IMG/VR virus record: IMGVR_UViG_2061766007_001954
Reading direction: 5' to 3' (one strand)
Source: an uncultured virus (IMG/VR IMGVR_UViG_2061766007_001954)
Lineage: Duplodnaviria; Heunggongvirae; Uroviricota; Caudoviricetes
DNA: 47,181 nucleotides
The notes beneath the pieces were generated by a model. It was not told where the DNA came from, searched no databases, and was given only the letters and a program-made list of their open reading frames with translations. How positions within the stretch are numbered: position 1 is the stretch's first letter; each line of letters opens with the position of its first letter. A program made the translations under genes and the position numbers. Positions 5,303-46,606 of the stretch are shown in pieces.

Positions 5303-5330
5303 AAGCCCCGGATTTCCGGGGCTTCTTTTT
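5303..5330 (+). terminator. intrinsic terminator between convergent genes
   Basis: AAGCCCCGG-ATTT-CCGGGGCTT hairpin followed by CTTTTT. Confidence 0.85.
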
Positions 5331-6162
5331 AGTCATCAAGTGCGTCTTTACCGACGTGTTCTCGCAGCTTCTGCAGTATCGTATTAATACGACCGCGAAT
5401 ACGTTGCTGACACCATCCGGTCTCAGTGCTAAGCACCTCCAGGTTCACAGCCTCACAACCAAGCCCATAAGTATACCGAAGTAGGAATTTGTCCATGTCC
5501 GTCAGTATGTCTATAGAATCCAGAAGTTGTTCTATAACCTGGTGTCTGGTATAAGTCTGGTGCTGGTCTGTATCATCTTCCTGTGACATCATCTCTTCAA
5601 AAGTAACATTGCTGTCGCTATCAAGTGTTTCATTGGTAGATACCATACTGATATCTGCAGTACGGGCACCATTTAATCGTGCAAGGCTGATCCCCGATAA
5701 TGTAGCAAGTTCTTCATCAGTAGGCATACGTCCATGTTCTGCTTCGAAGGCATTACGAGTTTTTGCTACTTTAGCTGCAAGTTGAGCCATTCCTCCAGGT
5801 ATACGGACAGTACGCTTACCGGATGTAAGATATCTGCGTAGGGACTGCTTAACCCATGACGCGGCTACAACGCTGAACTTAGGTGATCGTTCAGGATCAA
5901 ATTTATCGGCAGCTATGACCAGGCCCTTGTTGCCCTCTTGAATAAGATCAGCCAGTTCTGCATAGGCTTTATAGTCATGGGCAATTTTAACCACAAGGCG
6001 AAGATTACACACAATGAGTTTCTCACGTGCAGCATCTCTTGCAGATTGGTCAGGTCCGTGCATTAGATGGTATAACTCCAGTGTCTGTGCTTGTGTTAGC
6101 TTCGGATACTGCTCAATGTCTTGCATGTAAGCGTCGATGTTGGATACCTTGATGTGCTGCAT
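5329..6162 (-). CDS. sigma-70 family RNA polymerase sigma factor (divergent)
   Basis: Region 2 NLRLVVKIA..DLIQEGNKGL..AADKFDPER, RTVRIP, region 3 GRMPTDEELA, degenerate region 4; AAGGAGG RBS before ATG 6162. Confidence 0.93.
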   Translation of the reverse strand: MQHIKVSNIDAYMQDIEQYPKLTQAQTLELYHLMHGPDQSARDAAREKLIVCNLRLVVKIAHDYKAYAELADLIQEGNKGLVIAADKFDPERSPKFSVVAASWVKQSLRRYLTSGKRTVRIPGGMAQLAAKVAKTRNAFEAEHGRMPTDEELATLSGISLARLNGARTADISMVSTNETLDSDSNVTFEEMMSQEDDTDQHQTYTRHQVIEQLLDSIDILTDMDKFLLRYTYGLGCEAVNLEVLSTETGWCQQRIRGRINTILQKLREHVGKDALDD

Positions 6163-6293
6163 AACTGCCTCCTTGTTGTGAGTTATACAGGTAATATAGC
6201 ATGGAAAATACAAAATGCAAGCCAGAAATCAAAGAAAGTTTGAAAATTCTTATTTACGCTGTGTCTAGGTTATGAAAATAAGGATATAGAATT

Positions 6294-7610
6294 ATGGCTT
6301 CAGCACCAGGAATAAGAAACAGAAAAGACTTTGGCAATATGTCGACGCTTCCCACAGATGCTGTCCTCACACTTATAAGACAGAGACATGCAGCTAGAAA
6401 AGCAGGTCTTCATGAAGATACCAGATGGGGCGATTCGACCAAGGGATTATATTCTTTTGCAACACCAAAGTTTTTGCCAGAACAACCTGGTGATAAACGG
6501 CTTATGATAAGACAGCCTCTGCACCAATGGTCATGGGGAGATTTTGAGGGCGAGATTCCGGCTGGGGAATATGGCGCCGGTGGTGTTTCACTTATTGAGC
6601 GATCCCCGATGGTGCTTCTCAAGAATACACCAGATCATATAGTGTGGACTCGTGGTACATCGCAGGATAGTCCGGTGTACTCTATGCGCCGCACTAAAAA
6701 CGGTAACTATCTGTGCGTCATTCGCAGTAAAGATCAGCCTACCGTTGTTAAGACTTATAAGAAATCTCATTTTCCTTTGATACCTATAGAGGATGTTGCC
6801 AAACTCATAGATCAGGGTGCAAGAGTACGCGAAAAGATCGATGGCGCTTCAGTTTTAGCGTATCTGAGTAAGAATGGTATTAGAGCTTTTGGCACTCGTG
6901 TAGGCGCTAATGGTATGCGTCCAGAGTATACTAATTACCTTGGACCCGAGATCAGAAACGCACAAGTCCCAAAGGAGCTGCAGGATCGTCTTATAAGGGG
7001 AGAGCTTTATGGAGTTGATGCTCATGGTAAGCCTATTCATCCTAACGAGCTTTCTGGCTTACTGCATAGTAACCTTGTAAATGCTGTAGATATCAAGCAG
7101 AAGAAAGGTATCCGCCTTCTTATAGCCGCATTGGCAGAGAATAAGAACGGCACGGATGACTGGTATACAGGTGCAGACGATCTTGTAGCCAAGTTGAACA
7201 ATCCGTCTATTCATGGTATGCCTCCAGCTACAGGTGAAGCCGCCAAACGACTTGTTGCAAAGATCGTAGCAGGCAAGCATCCACTAACAAGGGAAGGTGC
7301 TGTGCTCAGCTTCCCGAACGGTAAGACCTATAAAGCCAAGAAACGTGATGACTATGATGCTGTTATCAGAGAGATCTTCCCAGCCGATACGAAAGGTACA
7401 CCAAGAGCAGGCGGCTTCTATTACAGTTATCCTGGAGAAGATCGTATAGCTGGTAAGGTCGGCACAGGGCTCGACTATAAGACATTGCAGGATATGCTGG
7501 CTAATCCGCAGAAGTACATTGGCAGGGAAGTGCGACTCTCCAGTCAGGAACAATATAAAGATACTGGTGCCTTAAGAGCACCCAGTTTCGTCGCATTCAG
7601 AGCCGATTGA
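6294..7610 (+). CDS. ATP-dependent DNA ligase with N-terminal LigD-type 3'-phosphoesterase domain
   Basis: N-term QRHAARKAGLHED..SFATPK..GDKRL..FEGEIPAGEYGAG (LigD PE); adenylation motif EKIDG; RGELY; EGAV; OB-fold GKVGTG..LRAPSF. Confidence 0.88.
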   Translation: MASAPGIRNRKDFGNMSTLPTDAVLTLIRQRHAARKAGLHEDTRWGDSTKGLYSFATPKFLPEQPGDKRLMIRQPLHQWSWGDFEGEIPAGEYGAGGVSLIERSPMVLLKNTPDHIVWTRGTSQDSPVYSMRRTKNGNYLCVIRSKDQPTVVKTYKKSHFPLIPIEDVAKLIDQGARVREKIDGASVLAYLSKNGIRAFGTRVGANGMRPEYTNYLGPEIRNAQVPKELQDRLIRGELYGVDAHGKPIHPNELSGLLHSNLVNAVDIKQKKGIRLLIAALAENKNGTDDWYTGADDLVAKLNNPSIHGMPPATGEAAKRLVAKIVAGKHPLTREGAVLSFPNGKTYKAKKRDDYDAVIREIFPADTKGTPRAGGFYYSYPGEDRIAGKVGTGLDYKTLQDMLANPQKYIGREVRLSSQEQYKDTGALRAPSFVAFRAD

Positions 7611-8365: not shown

Positions 8366-8566
8366 ATGGAACTGAAAGACATGCTCGGCGGAGATACTGT
8401 ACCTGGTAAGGATGTGGAGATCGAAGAACGTCCTGCTCTTGTACCGAGACAGCCCTATGAGCCGCCGAAGAAACAGTGGCCTGTCATGGAGATCATCATT
8501 CTGACAGTCTACATCTTGAACACTATGATCTTATTCGCAATTTACCAAATCATAAAAACACTATGA
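8366..8566 (+). CDS. small membrane protein
   Basis: GGAGG RBS; C-terminal hydrophobic helix. Confidence 0.6.
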   Translation: MELKDMLGGDTVPGKDVEIEERPALVPRQPYEPPKKQWPVMEIIILTVYILNTMILFAIYQIIKTL

Positions 8567-8577
8567 GAGGAGACACT

Positions 8578-9705
8578 ATGTCTGAAACAATGTACCACAA
8601 ATACACTGAAATAGAGAACATGACGCCCAAGTGGATCCAACAGGTCCGGGATCATGGCTTCGACAAGTCCTGTGCAGAGTGGTATGCTGCCGTAAAAATT
8701 GATGGCTGTAACTTGCAGCTCTATGTGGATGCTGAGGGCATTATGCACTATGGCTCACGAAACCAGGAGCTCGGTCGTTACGATACCTTCAACAATTATC
8801 GTTCGATGGTTGCCAGGCTGCAACTCGATGAGAAAGTTCAGCAGGCGAAAGTATACTGGTGCGAGGATATGAACAAAGGAATCAAAGATATGATTCTTGT
8901 TGGTACTCGCATGTATCCTGTGACCTTCTGTGTGTACGGCGAGTTGTGCGGCGGCGTGTATCGTCATCCTGATGTGGAGCCTGTTAAGGGTGAGTCTAAG
9001 ATCCAGGGGCGTGTCTGCTATGCACCGGATCACAGATGGGTTGTATTCGATATCTGGGTTTTGATCCACACTTTCCCTGAACCGACAGGTTTTTACCTCA
9101 CTCCATCTGAGGTTCATGAGATCTGTGCGCAGGTAGGACTTCCCAGTCAGCAGATTGTATGCTGTGGCACCTTTGATGAAGTCATTGCATATCCGAACGA
9201 CTTCGAGGACGAGACAGGGCATGTCCTGTTTGGCTTGCCTAAACTGGAAAAGAATATCGTCGAAGGCGTTGTCATCAAGCCTGGCAGAGAGCTGCGCTTC
9301 GGTAACGGAGACAGGGTCATCGCCAAGAACAAGAACCAGATCTTCCTGGAGCGCGGTGTCAAGACCAACAAGATCAAGAATCCGCCAGAGCCTATGACAG
9401 AGCTCGATGAGAAGTGGTTCAACACCTATATGGAATTCGTCACCGAGAGCCGCATGATGTCTGTGCTTTCCAAGATGGACACCAGCAACATCACACAGAG
9501 CGACTTCGGCAAGCTGTTGAATGCTTTCATTGATGATGCCGATAAGGACTTCAACAAGGAGTATGGCGGACAGATTAAAGTGCTGGAAGCCGAGAAGCCG
9601 GTCAGCGAGTTCAATTTCATGAAGGTTCTGAAGGCCGCCAAGGGCGAAGCAGCCAAGCTTATCAGACCTCACTTCCTCGAATATCTGCAAAACCAGAAAG
9701 GATGA
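8578..9705 (+). CDS. RNA ligase, Rnl2 family
   Basis: YHKYTEIEN, motif I KIDGCN, GSRN, VYGELCGG, FDI, EGVVIKP, KNKN, and Rnl2 C-domain VTESRMMSVLSK. Confidence 0.92.
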   Translation: MSETMYHKYTEIENMTPKWIQQVRDHGFDKSCAEWYAAVKIDGCNLQLYVDAEGIMHYGSRNQELGRYDTFNNYRSMVARLQLDEKVQQAKVYWCEDMNKGIKDMILVGTRMYPVTFCVYGELCGGVYRHPDVEPVKGESKIQGRVCYAPDHRWVVFDIWVLIHTFPEPTGFYLTPSEVHEICAQVGLPSQQIVCCGTFDEVIAYPNDFEDETGHVLFGLPKLEKNIVEGVVIKPGRELRFGNGDRVIAKNKNQIFLERGVKTNKIKNPPEPMTELDEKWFNTYMEFVTESRMMSVLSKMDTSNITQSDFGKLLNAFIDDADKDFNKEYGGQIKVLEAEKPVSEFNFMKVLKAAKGEAAKLIRPHFLEYLQNQKG

Positions 9706-10779: not shown

Positions 10780-11027
10780 CCTTAAAAGAGTTCAACAAAA
10801 CGCAGGGTCGCTGTCCCTTTTGCGGCTCTGATGACTTCGTCTTTGATGTTACAGTCGACGCTGAACCACCAGTTCCAAAGCTGGGTATTGAAATGGATGA
10901 ACTACGCACAGGCTGCATCGATCATGTGTACACAGAGTGCCAGTGTATGGTGTGCGGTTGCGAGTTCAGACAGCTCTATGAGCTGCGTTATGCAGGTCAA
11001 GAGATTGAAACGAAAGGATTAATATGA
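10776..11027 (+). CDS. zinc-ribbon protein
   Basis: CPFCGS...CMVCGCEFRQLY. Confidence 0.75.
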   Translation: MTLKEFNKTQGRCPFCGSDDFVFDVTVDAEPPVPKLGIEMDELRTGCIDHVYTECQCMVCGCEFRQLYELRYAGQEIETKGLI

Positions 11028-13285
11028 GAGATCTAATTCTCTTAAGGGGAGCCCCCGGATCCGGAAAAAGCACTTTCGTGAAAGAGCATCACTTAGAGCC
11101 GTACACTGTTTCTTCGGATCAGGTGCGGCTTATGTTTTCTGCACCAGAGATTGATGCGCTTACTGGCGAACCTCATATCAGCCAGCGTAATGAAAATGCT
11201 GTCTGGGAGTTTATTTACCAGATAGTCGAGCTTCGTATGAAGACAGGGCAGTTCATCGTACTGGATGCGCAGAACCTTCATCCTGCGCGTTGGTTGAAGC
11301 TGGCTGAAAAGTATCGGTATCGTGTTTATGTCAAGCAGATGGAAGCCACGTTGGAAGAGTGCCTGGAACGCAATGCAAAGCGGCCGGCACTTAACAGAGT
11401 TCCTGAGCATGTCATTATGGCATCTAACTGGAAGCTCGATAACAACGAACTGTCCTCTAAAGTTAAACCAGTTACCGAAGAGATCGCCAACGGAGATATT
11501 CAGCCCTTTGATGCAAACGGCTATGAGCATGTCTGGATTTGCGGAGATGTGCATGGTTGCTACGTACCGTTGAAAGCCTTCTATGACTACACAGGAGGTT
11601 TCCCGGAAAAGGATCTCGTCATCTTTGTCGGTGACTACGTAGATCGTGGAATCCAGAACAAAGAGACTTTGGAGCTGCTCATCGAACAGCGCCATAAAAA
11701 GAATGTTGTGTTCCTTGAGGGTAATCATATTTGGGAGACCCTGTTCGCCAATGACAGGGTCGATGAGATTAAGTCCCATGAATTCATGCTCAACACATTG
11801 CCGCAGATAGAAACAACCGACAAGAAGCACCTTCGTGAATGGGCTTCTCGCTGGGGACAGTTCTGTTACTTCACATTCCACGGAAAGACATATCTGGTTA
11901 CACATGCAGGTATTGGCTATATGCCGGAACACTTGCTTTATGTGCCCACTAAGATGTTCACTCGCGGTGGAGCATATGAAGAAGATGTTGACAGAGCATG
12001 GTGCGAGAAAGGCTATGGTCCCAATCTGATTCAGGTACACGGTCATCGCAACTGGTATCAGTATGCCATTGATGAAACCGAGACCAGCATCAACCTGTGC
12101 TCGGCTGTTGAGTTCGGCGAACCTTTGCGTGTTTATGGTGTCACTGCGGAAGATACATATTATCTGACGTTTGATAATCCGGTGCATCGTGCAGGTATGT
12201 CATTGCGCAGACGTGCAGATCTACTGGAAGGAAAAGCCACCGCTACGCCGCAGGAAGTTGCTGAACTTCTGGTATACAATCTGCGCATGGCAAAGGGCGT
12301 CGAAGAGAAGCAGCTCAAGAACGGCGTTTCAAGCTTCAATTTTTCCAGAGACATCTTCTATTCAATGGCATGGGATGACCTGAATAAGATCGCCCGTGGT
12401 CTTTTCGTCGATACCATTCACTGGAAGATCCTTGCCAGAGGTTTTGAGAAATTCTTCCATGCCAATGAGCATAATGGTCTTTTCAACAGCAAGGAATGGC
12501 TCAAAGAGAATCTCAAGTTCCCTGTAAAGGCATGGAAGAAATACAACGGTTTCCTGTTTATGACAAGCTGGAATCCGTACACCGACGAGATCTTCTATGC
12601 CTCAAAGTCCACGACAGAGGGGCCGCATGTCGATATCGGCAAAAAGGTCTTGCAGGAATACTTTGATAAGAATCCTGTGGATGCCAAGAAGATCATCGAC
12701 TACATGAAGACGCACGATGTTACAATTCTGTGGGAGATCTGCAGCCATGAAGATCCGCATCCTATCTGGGAGTGGGAGCATGGCGATAAGGCAGTTTGCC
12801 TGGCAATCGTCAAGAACACTGTCAAGTTCGAGACCATACCTGATCAGGAATTCCAGAACCTTGTCTATGAATGCTGGGAAAGTGTACCGACTACGGAAGT
12901 GGAAAATACCTTTAACAGCTGGGAAGAACTGGAGCCGTGTATCGACAGTGGTATTTATGCACCTGTGTATGAGCCCACTGAGGGTTGGGTGCTGGTTGAT
13001 GCAAACGGATACAGATTCAAAGGTAAGACCGCCTACTACGATGCATGGAAGCGTCTTCGTAACATCAAGGAAGCCCTGCAGGAACATCCCGAGATCGATA
13101 TCCATTGGGATAAGTGGGATGAAACCGCATGGGAAGTGATCCGTTTCATGAAGCTTTGTAAGCCGGAGCTGCTCAAGGAATATTCCATCGTGTTCATACG
13201 TGGACAGTGGCTCGCTACCGGTCATAAGGATTATCCCTATGACATGACAAAACAACAACTACAAGAAAGGATTCGTCCGTTATGA
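11024..13285 (+). CDS. Pnkp-like RNA repair enzyme: P-loop kinase + metallophosphoesterase + RNA ligase domain
   Basis: GAPGSGKST and SSDQVR (kinase); GDVHG, GDYVDRG, GNH, THAG, HGH (phosphoesterase); ARGLF, FEKFF, KYNGF, EGWV (Rnl1-like ligase). Confidence 0.9.
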   Translation: MRDLILLRGAPGSGKSTFVKEHHLEPYTVSSDQVRLMFSAPEIDALTGEPHISQRNENAVWEFIYQIVELRMKTGQFIVLDAQNLHPARWLKLAEKYRYRVYVKQMEATLEECLERNAKRPALNRVPEHVIMASNWKLDNNELSSKVKPVTEEIANGDIQPFDANGYEHVWICGDVHGCYVPLKAFYDYTGGFPEKDLVIFVGDYVDRGIQNKETLELLIEQRHKKNVVFLEGNHIWETLFANDRVDEIKSHEFMLNTLPQIETTDKKHLREWASRWGQFCYFTFHGKTYLVTHAGIGYMPEHLLYVPTKMFTRGGAYEEDVDRAWCEKGYGPNLIQVHGHRNWYQYAIDETETSINLCSAVEFGEPLRVYGVTAEDTYYLTFDNPVHRAGMSLRRRADLLEGKATATPQEVAELLVYNLRMAKGVEEKQLKNGVSSFNFSRDIFYSMAWDDLNKIARGLFVDTIHWKILARGFEKFFHANEHNGLFNSKEWLKENLKFPVKAWKKYNGFLFMTSWNPYTDEIFYASKSTTEGPHVDIGKKVLQEYFDKNPVDAKKIIDYMKTHDVTILWEICSHEDPHPIWEWEHGDKAVCLAIVKNTVKFETIPDQEFQNLVYECWESVPTTEVENTFNSWEELEPCIDSGIYAPVYEPTEGWVLVDANGYRFKGKTAYYDAWKRLRNIKEALQEHPEIDIHWDKWDETAWEVIRFMKLCKPELLKEYSIVFIRGQWLATGHKDYPYDMTKQQLQERIRPL

Positions 13286-14573: not shown

Positions 14574-15473
14574 ATGAGACGCTTAAAAGTTTTATGTGTT
14601 TGTGGCGGAGGCATTTATGGGATCTTGCCCGCACATTTCTTATCCATGCTCCCGGAAGATCAACAAACGCTTAAAGGAATTGATGTCATAGCAGGTTGCA
14701 GCATTGGGGGCGTCCTTGCCTGTGCATATGCTGTGGGACACACGTTCTCCAATGTGGATAAGTGTTTTCAGCAGAGAGCAAAGGATTGTTTCAAGAAACG
14801 TTGGCAAGCAAAGATTAATCCACTGGAGTGCCCGGTATATGATAGTGAAAGCTTGTATAGTGTGATTCATGATATGGTTGGGGATAATCTTATGAAGGAT
14901 GTCCATAAGATATTCCCACAGCTGTCTATCGTTATCCCGGCACTGAATGTTACAACGGATAAGCCTATCTTTTTCCAGAATATAACACATGAGTTTGAGC
15001 AGTTACCATTAGTCGAAGCGGCAAAGATGACATCAGCAGCACCTAGTTATTTCGACTGTGTAGAGTACAAAGGAGACGCTGTGGTGGACGGTGGTTTGCT
15101 CGATGTTGATGGGGCCATGACAGCACTTACTACTGTGAAAGAACTTATGGGTGTTCCCTTTATGGCTATGGACACTATGATACTTGGAACTGGTCAAGAC
15201 GTTGATAAGAATCCGCTGACTGTTAAAGCATACAGGAAGCTTAATATGCTCGGTATGGCTACAGATGTTCTTAGAGCCTATGCAACACTCGGTAATAAGG
15301 AGACCAGCAAGAGACATCTTCGCGGGTTGGGATGTCATATATTGAATTATTTCAATCCTGTAGTTATAGATGGATCTTTGGATGACTGGAAGCAGATACC
15401 AGCACTTGTTAAAGAGGCAGACAAGTGCAGAGAAGAGTTTATCAGGACATGGAATGCCTGGAAGACATCTTGA
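14574..15473 (+). CDS. patatin-like phospholipase
   Basis: GGGIYG oxyanion motif, GCSIG nucleophile elbow, SAAPSYF, DGG catalytic Asp; AAGGAGG RBS. Confidence 0.93.
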   Translation: MRRLKVLCVCGGGIYGILPAHFLSMLPEDQQTLKGIDVIAGCSIGGVLACAYAVGHTFSNVDKCFQQRAKDCFKKRWQAKINPLECPVYDSESLYSVIHDMVGDNLMKDVHKIFPQLSIVIPALNVTTDKPIFFQNITHEFEQLPLVEAAKMTSAAPSYFDCVEYKGDAVVDGGLLDVDGAMTALTTVKELMGVPFMAMDTMILGTGQDVDKNPLTVKAYRKLNMLGMATDVLRAYATLGNKETSKRHLRGLGCHILNYFNPVVIDGSLDDWKQIPALVKEADKCREEFIRTWNAWKTS

Positions 15474-15520
15474 TCTTTTCTTTTATGCTACATTAAGTTT
15501 AACCAAACAAAAGGACTTAT

Positions 15521-16078
15521 ATGGCACGCAAGAAAAAGAAATCATTCGCCGTTGGCGATACCGTTTATGCAATCAACCCGCAAGGCGAGGTTATTGAAGC
15601 AACTATAAAGTCGATCAATACAGAGGACATGTGCCCCTACGAACTTGATCTGAAAACCAAGCTGCGTTTCTATACAGCAGACGATCTTTACAGTTTTCGT
15701 GAAGAGGCTGAGATGGTGCTTGCCAAACTTGATGGACAGCGCGTTCAAAGAGAGCTTGACAGCGGGAACCCGTGCTCCGGCTGCGTTCCTGCAGGCTATG
15801 ATAAGCGCACGCATACGTTCCTTGATGGCACTGGCAAGCGCATCAGTGAATTCTTTGAAGCCTCGCCGGAGATCGTCGACCAGTACAGCAAGCTTATCAG
15901 CAAGGTTTGCTCTTTCTGCCACAAGCATTCTATACCGGTGGTAACAGTTGCCTGCATGAAACGTACCAAGAAGGGTGAGGTTGCATTCTTGAATTCGTCG
16001 ATTCTGCCGTCTGCAAGGGTACCTGACATTCTGTGGGACGTCGATGAGATGTTTCGCTACGACGATGAGGAAGAATAA
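15521..16078 (+). CDS. hypothetical protein, SH3/KOW-like N-terminus
   Basis: FAVGDTVY...DLYSFREEA pattern shared with five other ORFs in the window. Confidence 0.7.
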   Translation: MARKKKKSFAVGDTVYAINPQGEVIEATIKSINTEDMCPYELDLKTKLRFYTADDLYSFREEAEMVLAKLDGQRVQRELDSGNPCSGCVPAGYDKRTHTFLDGTGKRISEFFEASPEIVDQYSKLISKVCSFCHKHSIPVVTVACMKRTKKGEVAFLNSSILPSARVPDILWDVDEMFRYDDEEE

Positions 16079-16144
16079 GGTCATCTTTATTTCAGCCGCA
16101 CTCGCTGGCACAATAAGATGATGAATACATATAAGGAAAATTTT

Positions 16145-16264
16145 ATGGCAGAACCCAAGCCGATCAAGAACGACTCTACTATTCGCATCTATAGAGACGG
16201 CAAACCTGTCGATATTCCTGTGAATGAGTTCCTGCATATGCTGGAGGAACTGAAGAATGGATGA
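16145..16264 (+). CDS. small hypothetical protein (39 aa)
   Basis: AAGGA RBS; own translation MAEPKPIKND...ELKNG*. Confidence 0.45.
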   Translation: MAEPKPIKNDSTIRIYRDGKPVDIPVNEFLHMLEELKNG

Positions 16265-16631
16265 GCACGCATCCATTTTTTATTGTAAGTATGCAGGTGG
16301 GTATCTGTTGTGCAGTGACAGCGATATAGAGCAGCTGGATACCTTGAAGCGGAAATCGATGACTAAGGACTTGTTTGCATATGCGGCACGAGCCTATTTT
16401 ATCAAGCCGTTCAAGGTATTCGATTGCAGGAACGGCAGACTAGCTATGCGGGTAATCTATAAACCAAAGCGCACTATGGAAGGCAGACGAAAGGACGGAT
16501 ATGTGGATCGATTGGTGACAATGAAACCAGCGTGGTTCACTACAATGCGCACTAAATTCGAGATGACCTTTCCGCACGGCTTGACCAATCAGCTGTTACA
16601 GATGTATAAAGCGCCTCCTGTTGACATTTAA
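16257..16631 (+). CDS. hypothetical protein
   Basis: 124-aa ORF, GGAGG RBS. Confidence 0.65.
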   Translation: MDEHASIFYCKYAGGYLLCSDSDIEQLDTLKRKSMTKDLFAYAARAYFIKPFKVFDCRNGRLAMRVIYKPKRTMEGRRKDGYVDRLVTMKPAWFTTMRTKFEMTFPHGLTNQLLQMYKAPPVDI

Positions 16632-16713
16632 CACATGCGGTCCTCCTCCGTTGGCCCCTTATGGCAGTAGCTGTAAGGGGCTTTATTTTGCGCTTTATAA
16701 ACGGTGTTTTGTG

Positions 16714-16728
16714 GGGCATAATATAATG
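16714..16728 (+). promoter_or_regulatory. promoter-like element upstream of the ncRNA cluster
   Basis: GGGCATAATATAATG copy, after a terminator-like hairpin (GCCCCTTA...TAAGGGGC plus T-rich tail). Confidence 0.7.
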
Positions 16729-16876
16729 GTGGAGCGCATGCTCTGCTGAATCCATTCAATCCCACATCACCCGTAAGAAAGGAGAGCAATGATGAAACGA
16801 CGATGTCTTTGCTTCAACACTCTGAACTAAACCTCATTCCCCGGCGCCGCGAGTAACCAGCCTGTCTCGCGATCAT

Positions 16877-16956
16877 GGGCCGATGAACGGTTTCGACAGC
16901 AGGAAAAGCCAAAGCGCACCTGATTCTGGACGAGGGTCCGACTCCCTCTCGGTCCA
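16877..16956 (+). ncRNA. mini-tmRNA-like RNA (tRNA-like domain only)
   Basis: Acceptor GGGCCGA/TCGGTCC with G3.U70 and discriminator A; no D-stem; GG-TTTCGAC 5' and GGAC 3' signatures of tmRNA; T-arm GAGGG-TCCGACT-CCCTC; only a short hairpin where the mRNA-like domain should be. Confidence 0.75.
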
Positions 16957-16966
16957 TTCAATTTCT

Positions 16967-17068
16967 TGTCGGTACAGGATGATATTGCTAGAGCGGTCCG
17001 GAGCGATTAGCTGACGCAGCGATGCGGGTCGCCCAGGCTCTAGGCGTGTGAAATTCACGCTACCGATA
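16967..17068 (+). ncRNA. tRNA-mimic structured RNA
   Basis: TGTCGGTA/TACCGATA terminal stem abutting T-arm GCGTG-TGAAATT-CACGC; CTAGAGC/GCTCTAG arm with internal hairpin. Confidence 0.5.
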
Positions 17069-17134
17069 TTTATCTCCTCGCTGCGGGAGCGATTCACAGC
17101 GGGCCCTTCCTCGGCATGGTAGAGGCATCTTAGT

Positions 17135-17530
17135 GGTAGTAGAGGCCACGATTCAAGCATCACATAATTCGGAGAACCCGATTTGTCCGAAATCTCTGAT
17201 GTAGGGCAATGCGATGCAAGGCGCCATGAATCAAAACTCTACTCTTTCACATGCGAGTAAATGAATTGTACCATGATCCTTGCAAAGTCTTTGCAAGGGG
17301 AGCACATAGTGTGTGAACCCGCGATAGAGAAATCTGTCGTGAGGGAGGTGCCATCCTTTGAAAAGGATTAATAGCGCATAGGGAGTACGTAGATCTCGGA
17401 GATCGTAAACGTCGTAAGCTTCCCTTGAAATCAGGCTGCAATCCGGCGTCTACTGTTGCAGCTTGATTTCTAAATTCACTTTTCCCGGTATCCAGCTTCC
17501 CGTAGATGACGGTAAAGGCTGCCCGGGATT
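17135..17530 (+). ncRNA. unclassified structured RNA region (series of hairpins)
   Basis: AGTAGAG/CTCTACT, GATTCA/TGAATC, CCTTGCAAAG/CTTTGCAAGG, GAAATCAGGCTGCAA/TTGCAGCTTGATTTC stems; no + strand ORF of 60 aa or more. Confidence 0.45.
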
Positions 17531-17532
17531 CA

Positions 17533-17662
17533 GGGGGCGTAGCTCAGTGGTCCAGAGCAGGTAAAAGCGAAAACTGTATCATTATCGTGATGCATACAGC
17601 AATCTATTAAATGCTCATTCTCAATGACCTGGTCGCACGTTCGAATCGTGCCGCTCCCGCCA
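17533..17662 (+). tRNA. tRNA-Glu(CTC) with 53-nt intron/insert in the 5' strand of the anticodon stem (17563-17615)
   Basis: Acceptor GGGGGCG/CGCTCCC plus G-CCA; D-arm GCTC/GAGC; T-arm GCACG-TTCGAAT-CGTGC; removing 17563-17615 gives GGTCA-TTCTCAA-TGACC and a 77-nt cloverleaf. Confidence 0.85.
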
Positions 17663-17665
17663 TTT

Positions 17666-17893
17666 TTCCTGCCATGGAAACCGTCAGTTCCATGGTCTAC
17701 CTTGATAATCTCTTTCGCAACAGGCCTGACGGCTACTGAGCGGATGGCTAGAGGGACGCCTCGATGCAAAAGATTATCGCTATCCGCAATGGCGTGGTTG
17801 AGCACGTCAGGGTAGCTACAGAAGGCGCTGCGACAGGAACGGCCGGTGGGGATAACGTGAATCCCCCATGAGCAGGCTACGAAGTTGCAGGAA
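17666..17893 (+). ncRNA. unclassified pseudoknotted RNA
   Basis: Closing stem TTCCTGC/GCAGGAA; hairpin CCATGGAA/TTCCATGG whose loop CCGTCAG pairs with CTGACGG (17726-17732); GATAATCT/AGATTATC stem. Confidence 0.5.
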
Positions 17894-17921
17894 GGGGTCA
17901 AAAAGGTGGATAAGACCCATT

Positions 17922-17962
17922 GCCCGAAATGCCCCGGTTGGGGTAGGTCGGGCTTTCTTTTT
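17922..17962 (+). terminator. intrinsic terminator ending the ncRNA cluster
   Basis: GCCCGA...TCGGGC with inner GCCCC/GGGGT stem, then TTTCTTTTT. Confidence 0.75.
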
Positions 17963-18084
17963 AGCCTTTAATTGGTGCTTAATAATCGCACAAAATGAAG
18001 GAAGTATAAGATGGTAAGGAAAACATCCTTACTAGCTGTATCAGAGTTAGTTACAGTTAATCAATTAACATAAGGATTATACTT

Positions 18085-19745: not shown

Positions 19746-20009
19746 ATGGAAGACAAAAACACCCAAACGGTCGATGCAGAAGTCGTCGACGAAATCACTG
19801 ACAAGCACAAAAGGAGCCATACCATGGAATCTGCCGCCACAGGTTGCAGCTGCAGCAGCTGTTGTTTAACAGGCTGCCTGATCCCGATCTTGATTGTCAT
19901 TCTGATCTGGATCGGCTGCATTCTCGCCAAGATCGCCAGGGGCTACAACAAGTCCCATGAACCGCAAATAGAACAGGTGCAGCCCAATGAGCAGCAATCG
20001 GATAAGTGA
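19746..20009 (+). CDS. small membrane protein with Cys-rich juxtamembrane motif
   Basis: GCSCSSCCLTGC followed by a TM helix; AAGGA RBS. Confidence 0.65.
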   Translation: MEDKNTQTVDAEVVDEITDKHKRSHTMESAATGCSCSSCCLTGCLIPILIVILIWIGCILAKIARGYNKSHEPQIEQVQPNEQQSDK

Positions 20010-21051
20010 GCAAGTAATCTTCAAGACCATCTATGGCTCCAAGCTCTATGGAACGGATGGTCCTAAGTCGGATGTCGATATTAAAGGAGTCTTTCTTCCC
20101 TCAATGGAATCATGTTTATTGTGCAAGGCTCCGCAGCATTATCTGTTCAAGCCTGAGACAGTGGAGCATGGTCCTGACAGGGAAGAGGAGTCCTGGCTGT
20201 CGCTGCAGTATTTCATGGGTCTGCTGACACAGGGAGAAACGAACTGTTTAGATATGTTCTTTGCATACACCAATAAGTCTGCCGTACTGGAGACGTCGTA
20301 TGCATACAAGGAACTTATCGATAACAGGGACAAATTCATCACCTCCAATGTGACCAAGTATTTAGGCTACTGCAAATCGCAAGCGCTTAAATACAGCATC
20401 AAAGGTGACAAGATTGCCAATTATGAAGCCTTTATGAAACTTATTGACAGCTGTACAAGTCCATCTTCTACAACGTTGGGTGAGTGGCTCGTACATTTAA
20501 GAATCATGGGGGCTGACTCAGGTGCACCTTTGGGGGATCCTGAGGATTACTTCAAGAATAATACCCATATCGGAAAGCGTTTCAAGATTACGGATAACAG
20601 ACTCGGTGATCATGCATATCTTCTTCTTTGTGACAATAAGGAGAGGTATATCATGGTTTCTGGTCATCTATTCCCGCAAAACGCCAACATCAACAGCACA
20701 AAAGATTCAATCAACAAATGCCTGAAGTCCTATGGCAAACGGGCGTTCAACGCAGCGGAGGACAACGGTGCCGATTATAAGGCACTGAGTCATGCGTTGC
20801 GTGTTGCCTATCAGGCACAGGATCTGCTGGTGCATGGCGAGATTCGCTTCCCACTGGACGAGCTGCAGCTTAAGGTAGTCCGTGACATCAAATTCAAGCA
20901 AACCACAATGTCGTATGATGAAATCGTCGAGCTGATTGAACAGAACATCGAAACAGTCGAAGGCTGTCTCAAGACGACATCACTGCCAAGTAAACCCAAC
21001 TGGGACTGGATCAACGGTTTCATTCTCAGTCAATACAAGGAGACCAAATGA
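19987..21051 (+). CDS. DNA polymerase beta-superfamily nucleotidyltransferase (T4 NrdC.11 / RlaP-like)
   Basis: YGSKLYGTDGPKSDVDIKGVF, GYCKSQA, DYKALSHALR. Confidence 0.85.
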   Translation: MSSNRISEQVIFKTIYGSKLYGTDGPKSDVDIKGVFLPSMESCLLCKAPQHYLFKPETVEHGPDREEESWLSLQYFMGLLTQGETNCLDMFFAYTNKSAVLETSYAYKELIDNRDKFITSNVTKYLGYCKSQALKYSIKGDKIANYEAFMKLIDSCTSPSSTTLGEWLVHLRIMGADSGAPLGDPEDYFKNNTHIGKRFKITDNRLGDHAYLLLCDNKERYIMVSGHLFPQNANINSTKDSINKCLKSYGKRAFNAAEDNGADYKALSHALRVAYQAQDLLVHGEIRFPLDELQLKVVRDIKFKQTTMSYDEIVELIEQNIETVEGCLKTTSLPSKPNWDWINGFILSQYKETK

Positions 21052-21476
21052 GTTCACATATCCGGGCAACTGTTATATTAACCGAGGATCTAAGCAGGGA
21101 TGACCTTGTGCAGTTCCTGTCCGAGGCTGTTGGAGAGGAGGCTGCCGCACTGGCTGAAAAGATCTTCAACATTCCTGCCAAAACAGATCTGAAACGCATG
21201 TTCAGTAGGCTTCACAAGCTTTACAACGCATGGCATGAATCCCCGGCGTACATCGAAACTGAGGACGAGTTCATTCCTGACGGTGATGGCGCTGCTGAGT
21301 TCCAAGGCACGATTCAGGCAATCATGCAACATGGTCAGGGCATCACTACGCATGATATGTTCCGTCTGGAATTGTTGTCTGAGTTTCTTTATGAGCTGGT
21401 CGATGGTCCCAGAAGCAAAGCCTTTATGAAGTCTCTCAACAAGTGGGAGAAGGTATTGCTGGAGGAGAACGCATAA
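21048..21476 (+). CDS. hypothetical protein
   Basis: 142-aa coupled ORF. Confidence 0.65.
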   Translation: MSSHIRATVILTEDLSRDDLVQFLSEAVGEEAAALAEKIFNIPAKTDLKRMFSRLHKLYNAWHESPAYIETEDEFIPDGDGAAEFQGTIQAIMQHGQGITTHDMFRLELLSEFLYELVDGPRSKAFMKSLNKWEKVLLEENA

Positions 21477-21820
21477 TGATGATCCCATGCAAACACATCA
21501 CAATATATGTTCCCTACAGCTCATTTGAGTTTGTATCTTCCAGATTCACAGGTAAGCGAGATCAGCTTCATCCTGTCATCATGAGTTACAGCGCTCTGAC
21601 AATCAGTGATAATTCCCCACTGATGCGTAAGCCTATCAAGGAATGCGGATTAAGCCCGCGTTCTGTGCATGCACTCGGTCGCAGAGGCATCGACACCATC
21701 GGAGAGCTGGTGCAGTACAGCCGTCATCAGCTGCTGCAAATCCGTAACCTCGGTGTGAAATGTGCCGATGAAATCGAAGCAATGCTTCAGAAAATCGGTC
21801 TGAAACTGGAGGCATCGTGA
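21476..21820 (+). CDS. RNA polymerase alpha-subunit C-terminal-domain-like protein
   Basis: PIKECGLSPRSVHALGRRGIDTIGELV..QLLQIRNLGVKCADEI matches the RpoA CTD pattern. Confidence 0.88.
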   Translation: MMIPCKHITIYVPYSSFEFVSSRFTGKRDQLHPVIMSYSALTISDNSPLMRKPIKECGLSPRSVHALGRRGIDTIGELVQYSRHQLLQIRNLGVKCADEIEAMLQKIGLKLEAS

Positions 21821-28202: not shown

Positions 28203-28580
28203 ATGAACTTTAGAGATGCGCTGGACGAATTGTTTCGCGCCAGATGCGGAAGAATCATCACATGTCCATACAAGGAGGACGAGCCGCGAACAAACAGGGC
28301 TACCTTTACAATGGAGCCTATGGCATTCACCGATAGGAAATTCAGAGACTATGTGATCATCTTCCTGGACCATGAGGCCAAACCCAGGTTTTGGCGTTGG
28401 AATAAGGCTGAAGAAAAGGCTCCTTGTTTAATCTCCGCAACAGATTCATATAAACTGGCAGCTGGCAAACCCTGGAATACTGGCAGCTGGATAATACCTG
28501 ATCCGCCACGCCAAATTGGTGACTGGATCGAAGAGGAACGAAATATATGCGACTGGACGACGCAAAACGAGAACTCCTGA
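28203..28580 (+). CDS. PY-family paralogue 2
   Basis: MNFRDAL..TCPY..WIIPDPPRQIGDW. Confidence 0.7.
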   Translation: MNFRDALDELFRARCGRIITCPYKEDEPRTNRATFTMEPMAFTDRKFRDYVIIFLDHEAKPRFWRWNKAEEKAPCLISATDSYKLAAGKPWNTGSWIIPDPPRQIGDWIEEERNICDWTTQNENS

Positions 28581-46454: not shown

Positions 46455-46606
46455 TATCTCCTCGTGGTTGAGGTTCCAATAGTCGGGCGCGAGAACTCAG
46501 GTATTCATATTAATAACACCTTTCGATGCGTAAGAACATTTCTTAACTGAGTGGCGACCATATCGGGCTGGGTTTCGATTGTGATTTTCCCGCCGATCCC
46601 GACGAT

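Follow-up and report, generated by a model that had tools for sequence, protein, structure and literature searches.

A tag-less mini-tmRNA gene, very probably of the DS6A type, in a rumen phage fragment

Known tag-less tmRNAs and the rumen phage element

The tmRNA-SmpB system is the main bacterial system for ribosome rescue and protein tagging. A standard tmRNA (Rfam RF00023) joins a tRNA-like domain (TLD), with both ends of the molecule and alanine identity, to about 250-300 nt of pseudoknots, a resume codon and a tag frame. Elsewhere, t-elements of the mascRNA type act as tRNA-shaped processing marks within longer noncoding transcripts and need only the fold. Mycobacterium phage DS6A is listed with a 'TLD only' tmRNA by Hudson, Lau & Williams (2014, PMC4131195). 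The 2025 tmRNA database paper (PMC11915505) repeats this entry and adds CDS-less tmRNAs from jakobid and oomycete mitochondria and two plastid genes of ~65 bp from Mallomonadaceae. Both papers describe work by Mao et al. (2009) in which a comparable molecule was a strong inhibitor of tmRNA in E. coli, and a published remark states that an unchargeable analogue is inhibitory as well. Sequestration of SmpB and untagged acceptance of stalled peptides are readings that those texts already contain (PMC4131195, PMC11915505).

The organellar CDS-less tmRNAs are reduced to little beyond the TLD and are kept with SmpB supplied from elsewhere, which suggests by analogy that a TLD alone can be useful. 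They descend from a resident tmRNA and meet no full-length competitor, whereas a virus enters a cell that has its own tmRNA.

We analyzed a DNA stretch of 47,181 nt from an uncultured virus (IMG/VR record IMGVR_UViG_2061766007_001954), called the window below, which looks like part of a large phage. Judged by its sequence, positions 16877-16956 almost certainly hold a tag-less mini-tmRNA gene whose TLD is of the DS6A type. The parts of the element are as follows.

16877..16956, + strand: TLD-only (tag-less) mini-tmRNA gene, from the sequence and as the sole match of the family model R1 in the window
16877..16883, + strand: 5' strand of the acceptor stem, GGGCCGA, with 7/7 pairs to 16949-16955, the third pair being G:U
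16884..16896, + strand: unpaired D-loop analogue of tmRNA type ending in GG and TTTCGAC, without a D stem (sequence, R1)
16897..16928, + strand: helix 2 of 7 bp, 16897-16903 paired with 16919-16928 (sequence)
16928..16931, + strand: GGAC linker before the T arm (sequence)
16932..16948, + strand: T arm, 5-bp stem 16932-16936/16944-16948 and loop 16937-16943, TCCGACT (sequence, fold)
16949..16956, + strand: 3' strand of the acceptor stem, TCGGTCC, and discriminator A (sequence, family comparison)

The gene is 80 nt long and ends at the discriminator A16956, after which the sequence continues with TTC instead of CCA. All 19 stem pairs are intact. Helix 2 carries a 3-nt ATT bulge at 16923-16925 and is capped by a 15-nt A-rich loop (16904-16918), located where a tmRNA has its entire mRNA-like domain; helix 2 and its short loop contain no resume codon, tag frame, stop codon or pseudoknots. 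Position 16938 is C in place of the usual U (the near-universal U55), and the T loop so departs from the canonical UUCRANU. Each component named in the preliminary description, namely the acceptor stem, G3:U70, discriminator A, GG-TTTCGAC, GGAC, helix 2 and the 15-nt loop, was present base for base, and the same applies to the atypical T loop TCCGACT and the unencoded CCA. Its overall reading also held: the element is a complete, non-permuted tRNA-like domain without space for a tag frame. As judged by R1, it is homologous to the DS6A element. The two functions that the preliminary description suggested with reserve are the two published readings named above.

Both the minimum free energy (MFE) fold and the centroid fold contain the acceptor stem and the T arm, and of helix 2 they recover the inner 4 bp. 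The MFE of -27.0 kcal/mol compares with -24.3 +/- 3.2 for shuffles (z -0.84; 44/200 shuffles fold equally well), and the thermodynamic stability of the element by itself is unremarkable. A gapped motif derived from the element matched once in the window, compared with 0/100 shuffles; this match and that of R1 exceed what is expected by chance.

The DS6A element was found by R1 at 28478-28557 (56.8 bits, E 2.9e-13), in the unannotated gap between gp33 and gp34. Both elements are phage-borne and about 80 nt long, and share a full acceptor stem with G3:U70 and A73, a tmRNA-type D loop, GGAC and a T arm, and a helix 2 closed by a short A-rich loop without a tag frame; both are found by one covariance model, and both score under the RF00023 gathering threshold. 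The carriers belong to unrelated lineages, DS6A being a temperate actinophage with an integrase, whereas the window, a fragment of a rumen phage, has RNA-repair genes and lacks an integrase. In contrast to the DS6A element, the window copy has the 3-nt bulge in helix 2 and C as the second residue of its T loop, and no 3-bp tetraloop hairpin stands out clearly in its inner loop. The likeness to standard tmRNA lies in the tRNA-like domain, the two molecule ends, alanine identity and, presumably, the SmpB partner; the pseudoknots, resume codon and tag frame are what the window element lacks.

Standard tools miss this copy. ARAGORN called no tRNA or tmRNA in the whole window, and Rfam at gathering thresholds called nothing in it. 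For RF00023, with its gathering threshold of 47 bits, the window gave 0 matches. A permissive Rfam scan of 451 nt returned only a local beta_tmRNA match (RF01850, 11 bits, E 0.24), which covers the GGAC/T-arm segment and lies far under the 84-bit threshold. This segment is what the permuted two-piece tmRNA has in common with the window gene, which is unpermuted and has no coding piece; a permuted form was rejected, the order being 5' half, loop, 3' half and the beta_tmRNA match being local at 11 versus 84 bits. An ordinary tRNA (RF00005/ARAGORN) was likewise rejected, the element having neither D stem nor anticodon arm and being called by neither tool. No tag-like frame occurs within 520 nt downstream, except for a chance-looking '...VAA stop' inside a hairpin, and no second T arm or matching acceptor strand was found between 16000 and 19500. 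A two-part tmRNA was rejected on these two findings, the missing downstream tag frame and the missing second 3' half.

A phage family recovered by one covariance model

To collect relatives, we scanned viral contigs with a motif whose only constraints were TTCGAC, then GGAC after a gap of 10-40 nt, and the T-loop consensus, and at least 120 viral loci matched; a strict motif made from the element matched 0 viral contigs. The analyzed set comprised 100 distinct sequences of 62-82 nt, 99 from loci among the matches listed plus the window. Among these, a perfect 7-bp acceptor stem was found in 95/100, G3:U70 in 96/100 and discriminator A in 98/100. Acceptor pairing, G3:U70 and discriminator A all lie outside the search pattern. 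CCA is encoded in 35 of the 100 sequences and absent in 65, again among the matches listed, so its absence from the window copy is normal. Within the same set, C occupies the T-loop position of 16938 in 7/100.

Six non-conforming sequences were excluded from the alignments: L067 and L088, rejected as ordinary tRNAs; L015 and L061, set aside as lying within long ARAGORN tmRNA calls; and L017 and L040, set aside for indels. MAFFT on all 93 sequences put the 5' acceptor strand out of register because D-loop lengths differ, and the seed was therefore restricted to 29 sequences of one D-loop length, in which the two G before TTTCGAC are invariant. The covariance model R1 was built from these 29 viral-contig sequences, window excluded, with a hand-written structure of 78 positions and 21 pairs. 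In the 47-kb window R1 gave one match, 16877-16956, over model positions 1-78 (47.3 bits, E 9e-11). Over 100 sources it gave 102 matches, with mini elements at 44-96 bits and ordinary tRNAs at 20-23 bits; the window copy ranks 95th of 102, among the weakest family members.

Pairs were counted on 96 members aligned to R1, with L015, L061, L067 and L088 dropped. This alignment is fitted to R1, and the search pattern determined its TTCGAC, GGAC and T loop as well as two pairs of the T stem. In it, 96.4% of cells were paired, compared with 65.3% in column shuffles (0/500 reached the observed value) and 42.6-55.0% with a slid partner. Changes on both sides were observed in 16/21 pairs. G1:C72, G2:C71 and G3:U70 are invariant in 96/96 members, acceptor pairs 4-6 switch among GC, CG, AU and UA, and in the 6-bp helix 2 of the family both sides have changed in 6/6 pairs. 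Covariation among homologues, which had been proposed as a check, was found in the other stem pairs, and the aligned members all keep G3:U70. The conservation of the T loop, GGAC and TTCGAC is no independent evidence, since the search pattern fixed them. In many members the 5' part of the helix 2 loop is an A-rich internal loop, which leads into a 3-bp hairpin with a covarying stem; the tetraloop of this inner hairpin varies (GCAA, GAAA, GTAA, CTTG, CACG) within a conserved module.

A further motif scan, of metagenome contigs, gave 87 loci, 85 of them with a 7/7 acceptor stem, and 52 distinct sequences. In bacterial genomes an equivalent motif matched at least 120 loci, and the acceptor stem was 7/7 in six among the matches listed (L136, L151, L183, L190, L195 and L233); the remaining bacterial matches, inspected by eye in part, were set aside as what look like ordinary tmRNA 3' ends with a chance TTCGAC. 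The tag-less form thus appears, from these sequences, to be mainly a phage trait. Full-length unannotated homologues are also present in cultured Streptomyces phages. The element of LuckySocke (17977-18054, 92.3 bits with R1) is part of a tRNA array, where tRNA-Val and tRNA-Ser flank it; genes for an RNA ligase and a phosphoesterase are found at a distance of 2-4 kb. Since R1 finds both the window element and the 'TLD only' tmRNA of DS6A, we place the former, on this shared match, in a large and mostly unannotated phage family.

Detection varies within this family. In an ordinary scan RF00023 scored above gathering at the mini element in 6/8 other sources tested, with DS6A and the metagenome locus L282 failing, and it scored the mini element over threshold in 49/50 carrier contigs. 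ARAGORN called 0 mini elements as tRNA in 60 loci and placed tRNA genes within 400 nt in 11/60. Most family members are detectable by Rfam's tmRNA model, and the lineage of the window slips past both Rfam and ARAGORN. The kind itself, whose novelty the preliminary description had implied, was described in 2009 and 2014 for the DS6A type and is within reach of RF00023 in those six of eight sources; it is already known, and by sequence comparison the window element is a divergent member. What is new is the extension of the type to rumen phages, a lineage quite different from that of DS6A and one that evades both ARAGORN and Rfam's tmRNA model, together with a natural C/T polymorphism in the T loop, cover in RNA libraries, and a noncoding, RNA-repair-rich neighbourhood. 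A literature search limited to main texts in a collection of open papers found no description of how broad the family is.

Close relatives, transcription and neighbourhood

Ruminant gut metagenome runs contain DNA of the window, and a run from a separate study covers 16600-17128 at 95-99% identity. The metagenome locus L282 matches 15476-17128 at 96.6% identity; its copy of the element is one A shorter in the loop and has TTCGACT, the usual form, as its T loop. Of the four runs aligned, X15 and X17 have T at position 16938, and X18 and X4 have C. Only two more differences lie within the 80 nt, the loss of 1 nt from the loop (16904) and a T>C change in the bulge (16925); in L282 and the four runs, at ~96-97% identity, no difference falls in any stem of the element. 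Given that the nearest relatives (L282, X15, X17) have the usual T, the atypical T loop is not a hallmark of the lineage and is thus a recent change that is tolerated or mildly damaging. Among GenBank phages we found no near-identical phage for 15500-18500, and viral contigs yielded no relative of the ORF at 16257-16631, which lies upstream of the element. The stretch 16771-16903 shows no difference in any aligned run covering it, and the flanking stretches vary.

The element lies in a noncoding stretch of ~1.4 kb (16632-18084) and is covered by contigs of three RNA libraries. The X18 library gave a 626-nt contig on 16848-17180 and 17275-17473, and the X17 library a 348-nt contig on 16752-17095, both on noncoding DNA only; a 29.9-kb contig of X15 also spans the element. 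Neither the strand nor the ends of a transcript can be read from these contigs, they may stem from DNA carry-over, and no silent control stretch was compared; as they are contigs only, the gaps in cover (X18 before 16848 and after 17473, X17 before 16752 and after 17131) carry no meaning. Two features of this stretch bear on its transcription.

16694..16727, + strand: promoter-like site, TTTATA, 17 nt, CATAAT with an overlapping TATAAT, ~150 nt upstream of the element (consensus scan)
16848..17473, strand not assigned: noncoding stretch, likely a precursor, in which the element lies close to the 5' end and a hairpin of 14 bp (17428-17469) comes last (RNA-library contigs)

The consensus scan gave four promoter sites versus 2.6 +/- 1.6 in shuffles, which is weak alone; the 348-nt contig of X17 begins shortly downstream of the site at 16694-16727. 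The stretch 16848..17473 folds at -225.6 kcal/mol (z -2.86, with 0/20 shuffles as stable). The picture fits a model in which transcription would run from 16694-16727 through the element into the folded noncoding stretch, which has the hairpin at 17428-17469 at its end.

Several smaller features surround the element. A 13-codon ORF, MMKRRCLCFNTLN (16789-16830, + strand), lies 46 nt upstream of the mini-tmRNA and is preceded by a strong Shine-Dalgarno-like sequence, GAAAGGAGAG (16777-16786). Downstream, about 400 nt (17129-17528) are present in the window and in the RNA-library contig of X18, where 94 nt are diverged, and missing from L282, X15 and X4; this segment has the look of a noncoding cassette that was inserted, contains no convincing ORF and has the hairpin at 17428-17469 at its end. 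Next, at 17533-17661 on the + strand, comes a second odd tRNA-like gene, with a 7-bp acceptor stem, a normal D arm, the T loop TTCGAAT, discriminator G and an encoded CCA, and with ~60-70 nt in place of the anticodon arm. It was called by neither ARAGORN nor Rfam, and is 97.8% conserved in L282; in X15 and X4 a tRNA-like start comes immediately after 17128. On the minus strand this gene is overlapped by a probably spurious ORF, 17530-17901.

Among the 73 ORFs of the window, PHROG and Pfam matches include a tail protein, a sigma factor, a dUTPase, a reverse transcriptase and the following RNA-repair genes.

6294..7610: LigD-type 3'-phosphoesterase (PHROG/Pfam)
8476..9705: Rnl2-type ligase (PHROG/Pfam)
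11024..13285: kinase-phosphatase-Rnl1 fusion, Pnkp-Rnl1 (PHROG/Pfam)
19987..21051: RlaP nucleotidyltransferase (PHROG/Pfam)

This is a dense repair set for one phage fragment, and a patatin-like phospholipase (14574-15473) sits between its genes. A small protein encoded at 21443-21820 (+ strand) has a bacterial RNA polymerase alpha C-terminal domain (E 2e-18), and the same phage encodes a sigma-70-family factor on the minus strand (5329-6213). No tyrosine integrase was matched by Pfam among the 73 ORFs, and the nearest integrase-like signal in the window is a weak DUF3701 match under the alpha C-terminal domain.

Our survey of carriers covered the 50 longest contigs, and ten of these reach a completeness of 90% or more. 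SmpB was found in 0/50 carriers and 0/10 near-complete ones, and is also absent from the 73 window ORFs; RF-1 domain proteins, that is, release-factor-like rescue proteins, were found in 0/50. A tyrosine integrase is present in 2/50 carriers and 1/10 near-complete ones. RtcB occurs in 2/50 and the RNA_ligase family in 6/50, counts for which there is no control set and no enrichment is claimed; five of the six RNA_ligase carriers are one lineage, as seen from their common Streptomyces-phage-like (LuckySocke-like) gene order. The tRNA model passed its cut-off in 18/50 carriers, with arrays of 7-42 tRNAs in seven contigs, so the mini-tmRNA is the sole tRNA-like gene in many carriers.

Proposed mechanism and rival readings

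From these sequence features we propose that the element is a functional tag-less mini-tmRNA acting as a charged competitor of host tmRNA. We lean towards this account of identity and mechanism taken jointly; for the mechanism as such the case is about evenly balanced. The RNA would be transcribed within a longer noncoding RNA, the one step on which data bear, in the form of the RNA-library contigs. Host RNase P and a 3' endonuclease would then excise it, the CCA-adding enzyme would complete it, and host alanyl-tRNA synthetase would charge it via G3:U70 and A73. Host SmpB is expected to bind its D-loop/T-loop elbow, the phage having no SmpB of its own; a dependence on host SmpB is what the lack of SmpB in the 50 carriers and the window ORFs leads us to infer. 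On ribosomes that have stalled on broken mRNAs, the complex, with EF-Tu, could then move into the vacant A site and take over the nascent chain. Since the RNA has neither resume codon nor tag frame, translation would not restart and no degradation tag would be added. The ribosome might afterwards be freed, by drop-off, Pth or ArfB-like factors, or remain jammed. The net effect would be competition with host tmRNA for SmpB and stalled ribosomes, so that truncated proteins escape ssrA tagging; in short, the element probably short-circuits the rescue-and-tagging system of the host. If true, a small phage RNA that plugs into tmRNA-SmpB would be a compact natural tool to switch off tagging or redirect rescue.

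That charging matters, and not SmpB binding alone, is argued by the alanine identity pair, which is unchanged across a deep family. This point separates the charged competitor from a pure SmpB sponge, which would titrate host SmpB (perhaps EF-Tu or RNase R) off the ribosome and for which alanine charging would be irrelevant. The sponge remains the main rival because of the published inhibition by an unchargeable analogue, and it is in keeping with the absence of a phage SmpB from all 50 carriers and from the window. Yet G3:U70 is kept in 96/96 aligned members and A73 in 98/100 of the sequences among the matches listed while neighbouring acceptor pairs vary, and such conservation is predicted by selection for recognition by alanyl-tRNA synthetase and superfluous for a sponge. 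On account of the invariance of G3:U70 we prefer the charged competitor and regard the sponge as unlikely. An RNase P or RNase Z mark that frees neighbouring noncoding RNAs, as t-elements do, and that has no role at the ribosome, would suit the ~1.4-kb noncoding stretch (16632-18084) with its second odd tRNA-like gene at 17533-17661, as well as the short RNA-library contigs that extend from the element into downstream noncoding DNA. The likeness to t-elements and mascRNA is that of a tRNA-shaped module in a noncoding transcript. For such a signal, however, any tRNA-like fold would suffice, whereas the family retains alanine identity and tmRNA-specific loops; moreover, the DS6A element stands alone between protein genes, and in many carriers, the tRNA model passing in 18/50, the element is the only tRNA-like gene. 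We therefore consider a processing signal improbable.

Still less probable, to a degree that we would call very slight, is a decaying remnant, that is, a phage tmRNA gene whose middle was deleted and which now drifts without function in the window lineage. The score under the Rfam tmRNA threshold, the miss by ARAGORN, the atypical T loop, the bulged helix 2, the missing CCA and the C/T polymorphism at 16938 among relatives would all agree with decay. Against it, 19/19 stem pairs are intact, relatives at ~96-97% identity differ only at unpaired positions, the architecture including the A-rich internal loop recurs over a deep family, and CCA is absent from 65/100 of the sequences among the matches listed. 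Least credible of all, and highly improbable, is a role as the attachment site by which the phage would insert itself into the host tmRNA gene. Integration often targets tmRNA genes (PMC10865867), and one carrier, G033, has an integrase ~3.4 kb from its element. However, an attP carries only the 3' part of the gene, whereas the window element has both halves, paired; there is no integrase family match among the 73 window ORFs, and a tyrosine integrase is found in only 2/50 carriers and 1/10 near-complete ones. The earlier statement that the element is not an attP 3' remnant is borne out by the two halves and by this lack of an integrase match.

A broader proposal than the charged competitor, and a rather unlikely one in our estimate, is that the mini-tmRNA is part of a phage kit of RNA-damage countermeasures against host anti-phage RNases that cut mRNAs and perhaps host tmRNA. 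In such a kit the compact, fully paired, alanine-charged TLD would clear stalled ribosomes via host SmpB and spare phage proteins ssrA-directed proteolysis, working alongside the neighbouring Pnkp-Rnl1, Rnl2, 3'-phosphoesterase and RlaP genes. Other parts of a structured noncoding precursor of ~0.6-0.75 kb, including the tRNA-like gene at 17533-17661, might act together with it.

The mini-tmRNA is not a replacement for tmRNA. The complete carrier contig G010 (123.6 kb, behind locus L018) has both, a mini copy at 46486-46567 and a 392-nt full-length tmRNA at 77588-77979, along with 42 tRNA matches. At a further locus, L009, ARAGORN called a 343-nt tmRNA at 130-472 with an odd 30-residue tag, and a perfectly formed 82-nt mini element at 388-469 shares its T arm and acceptor strand with this call.
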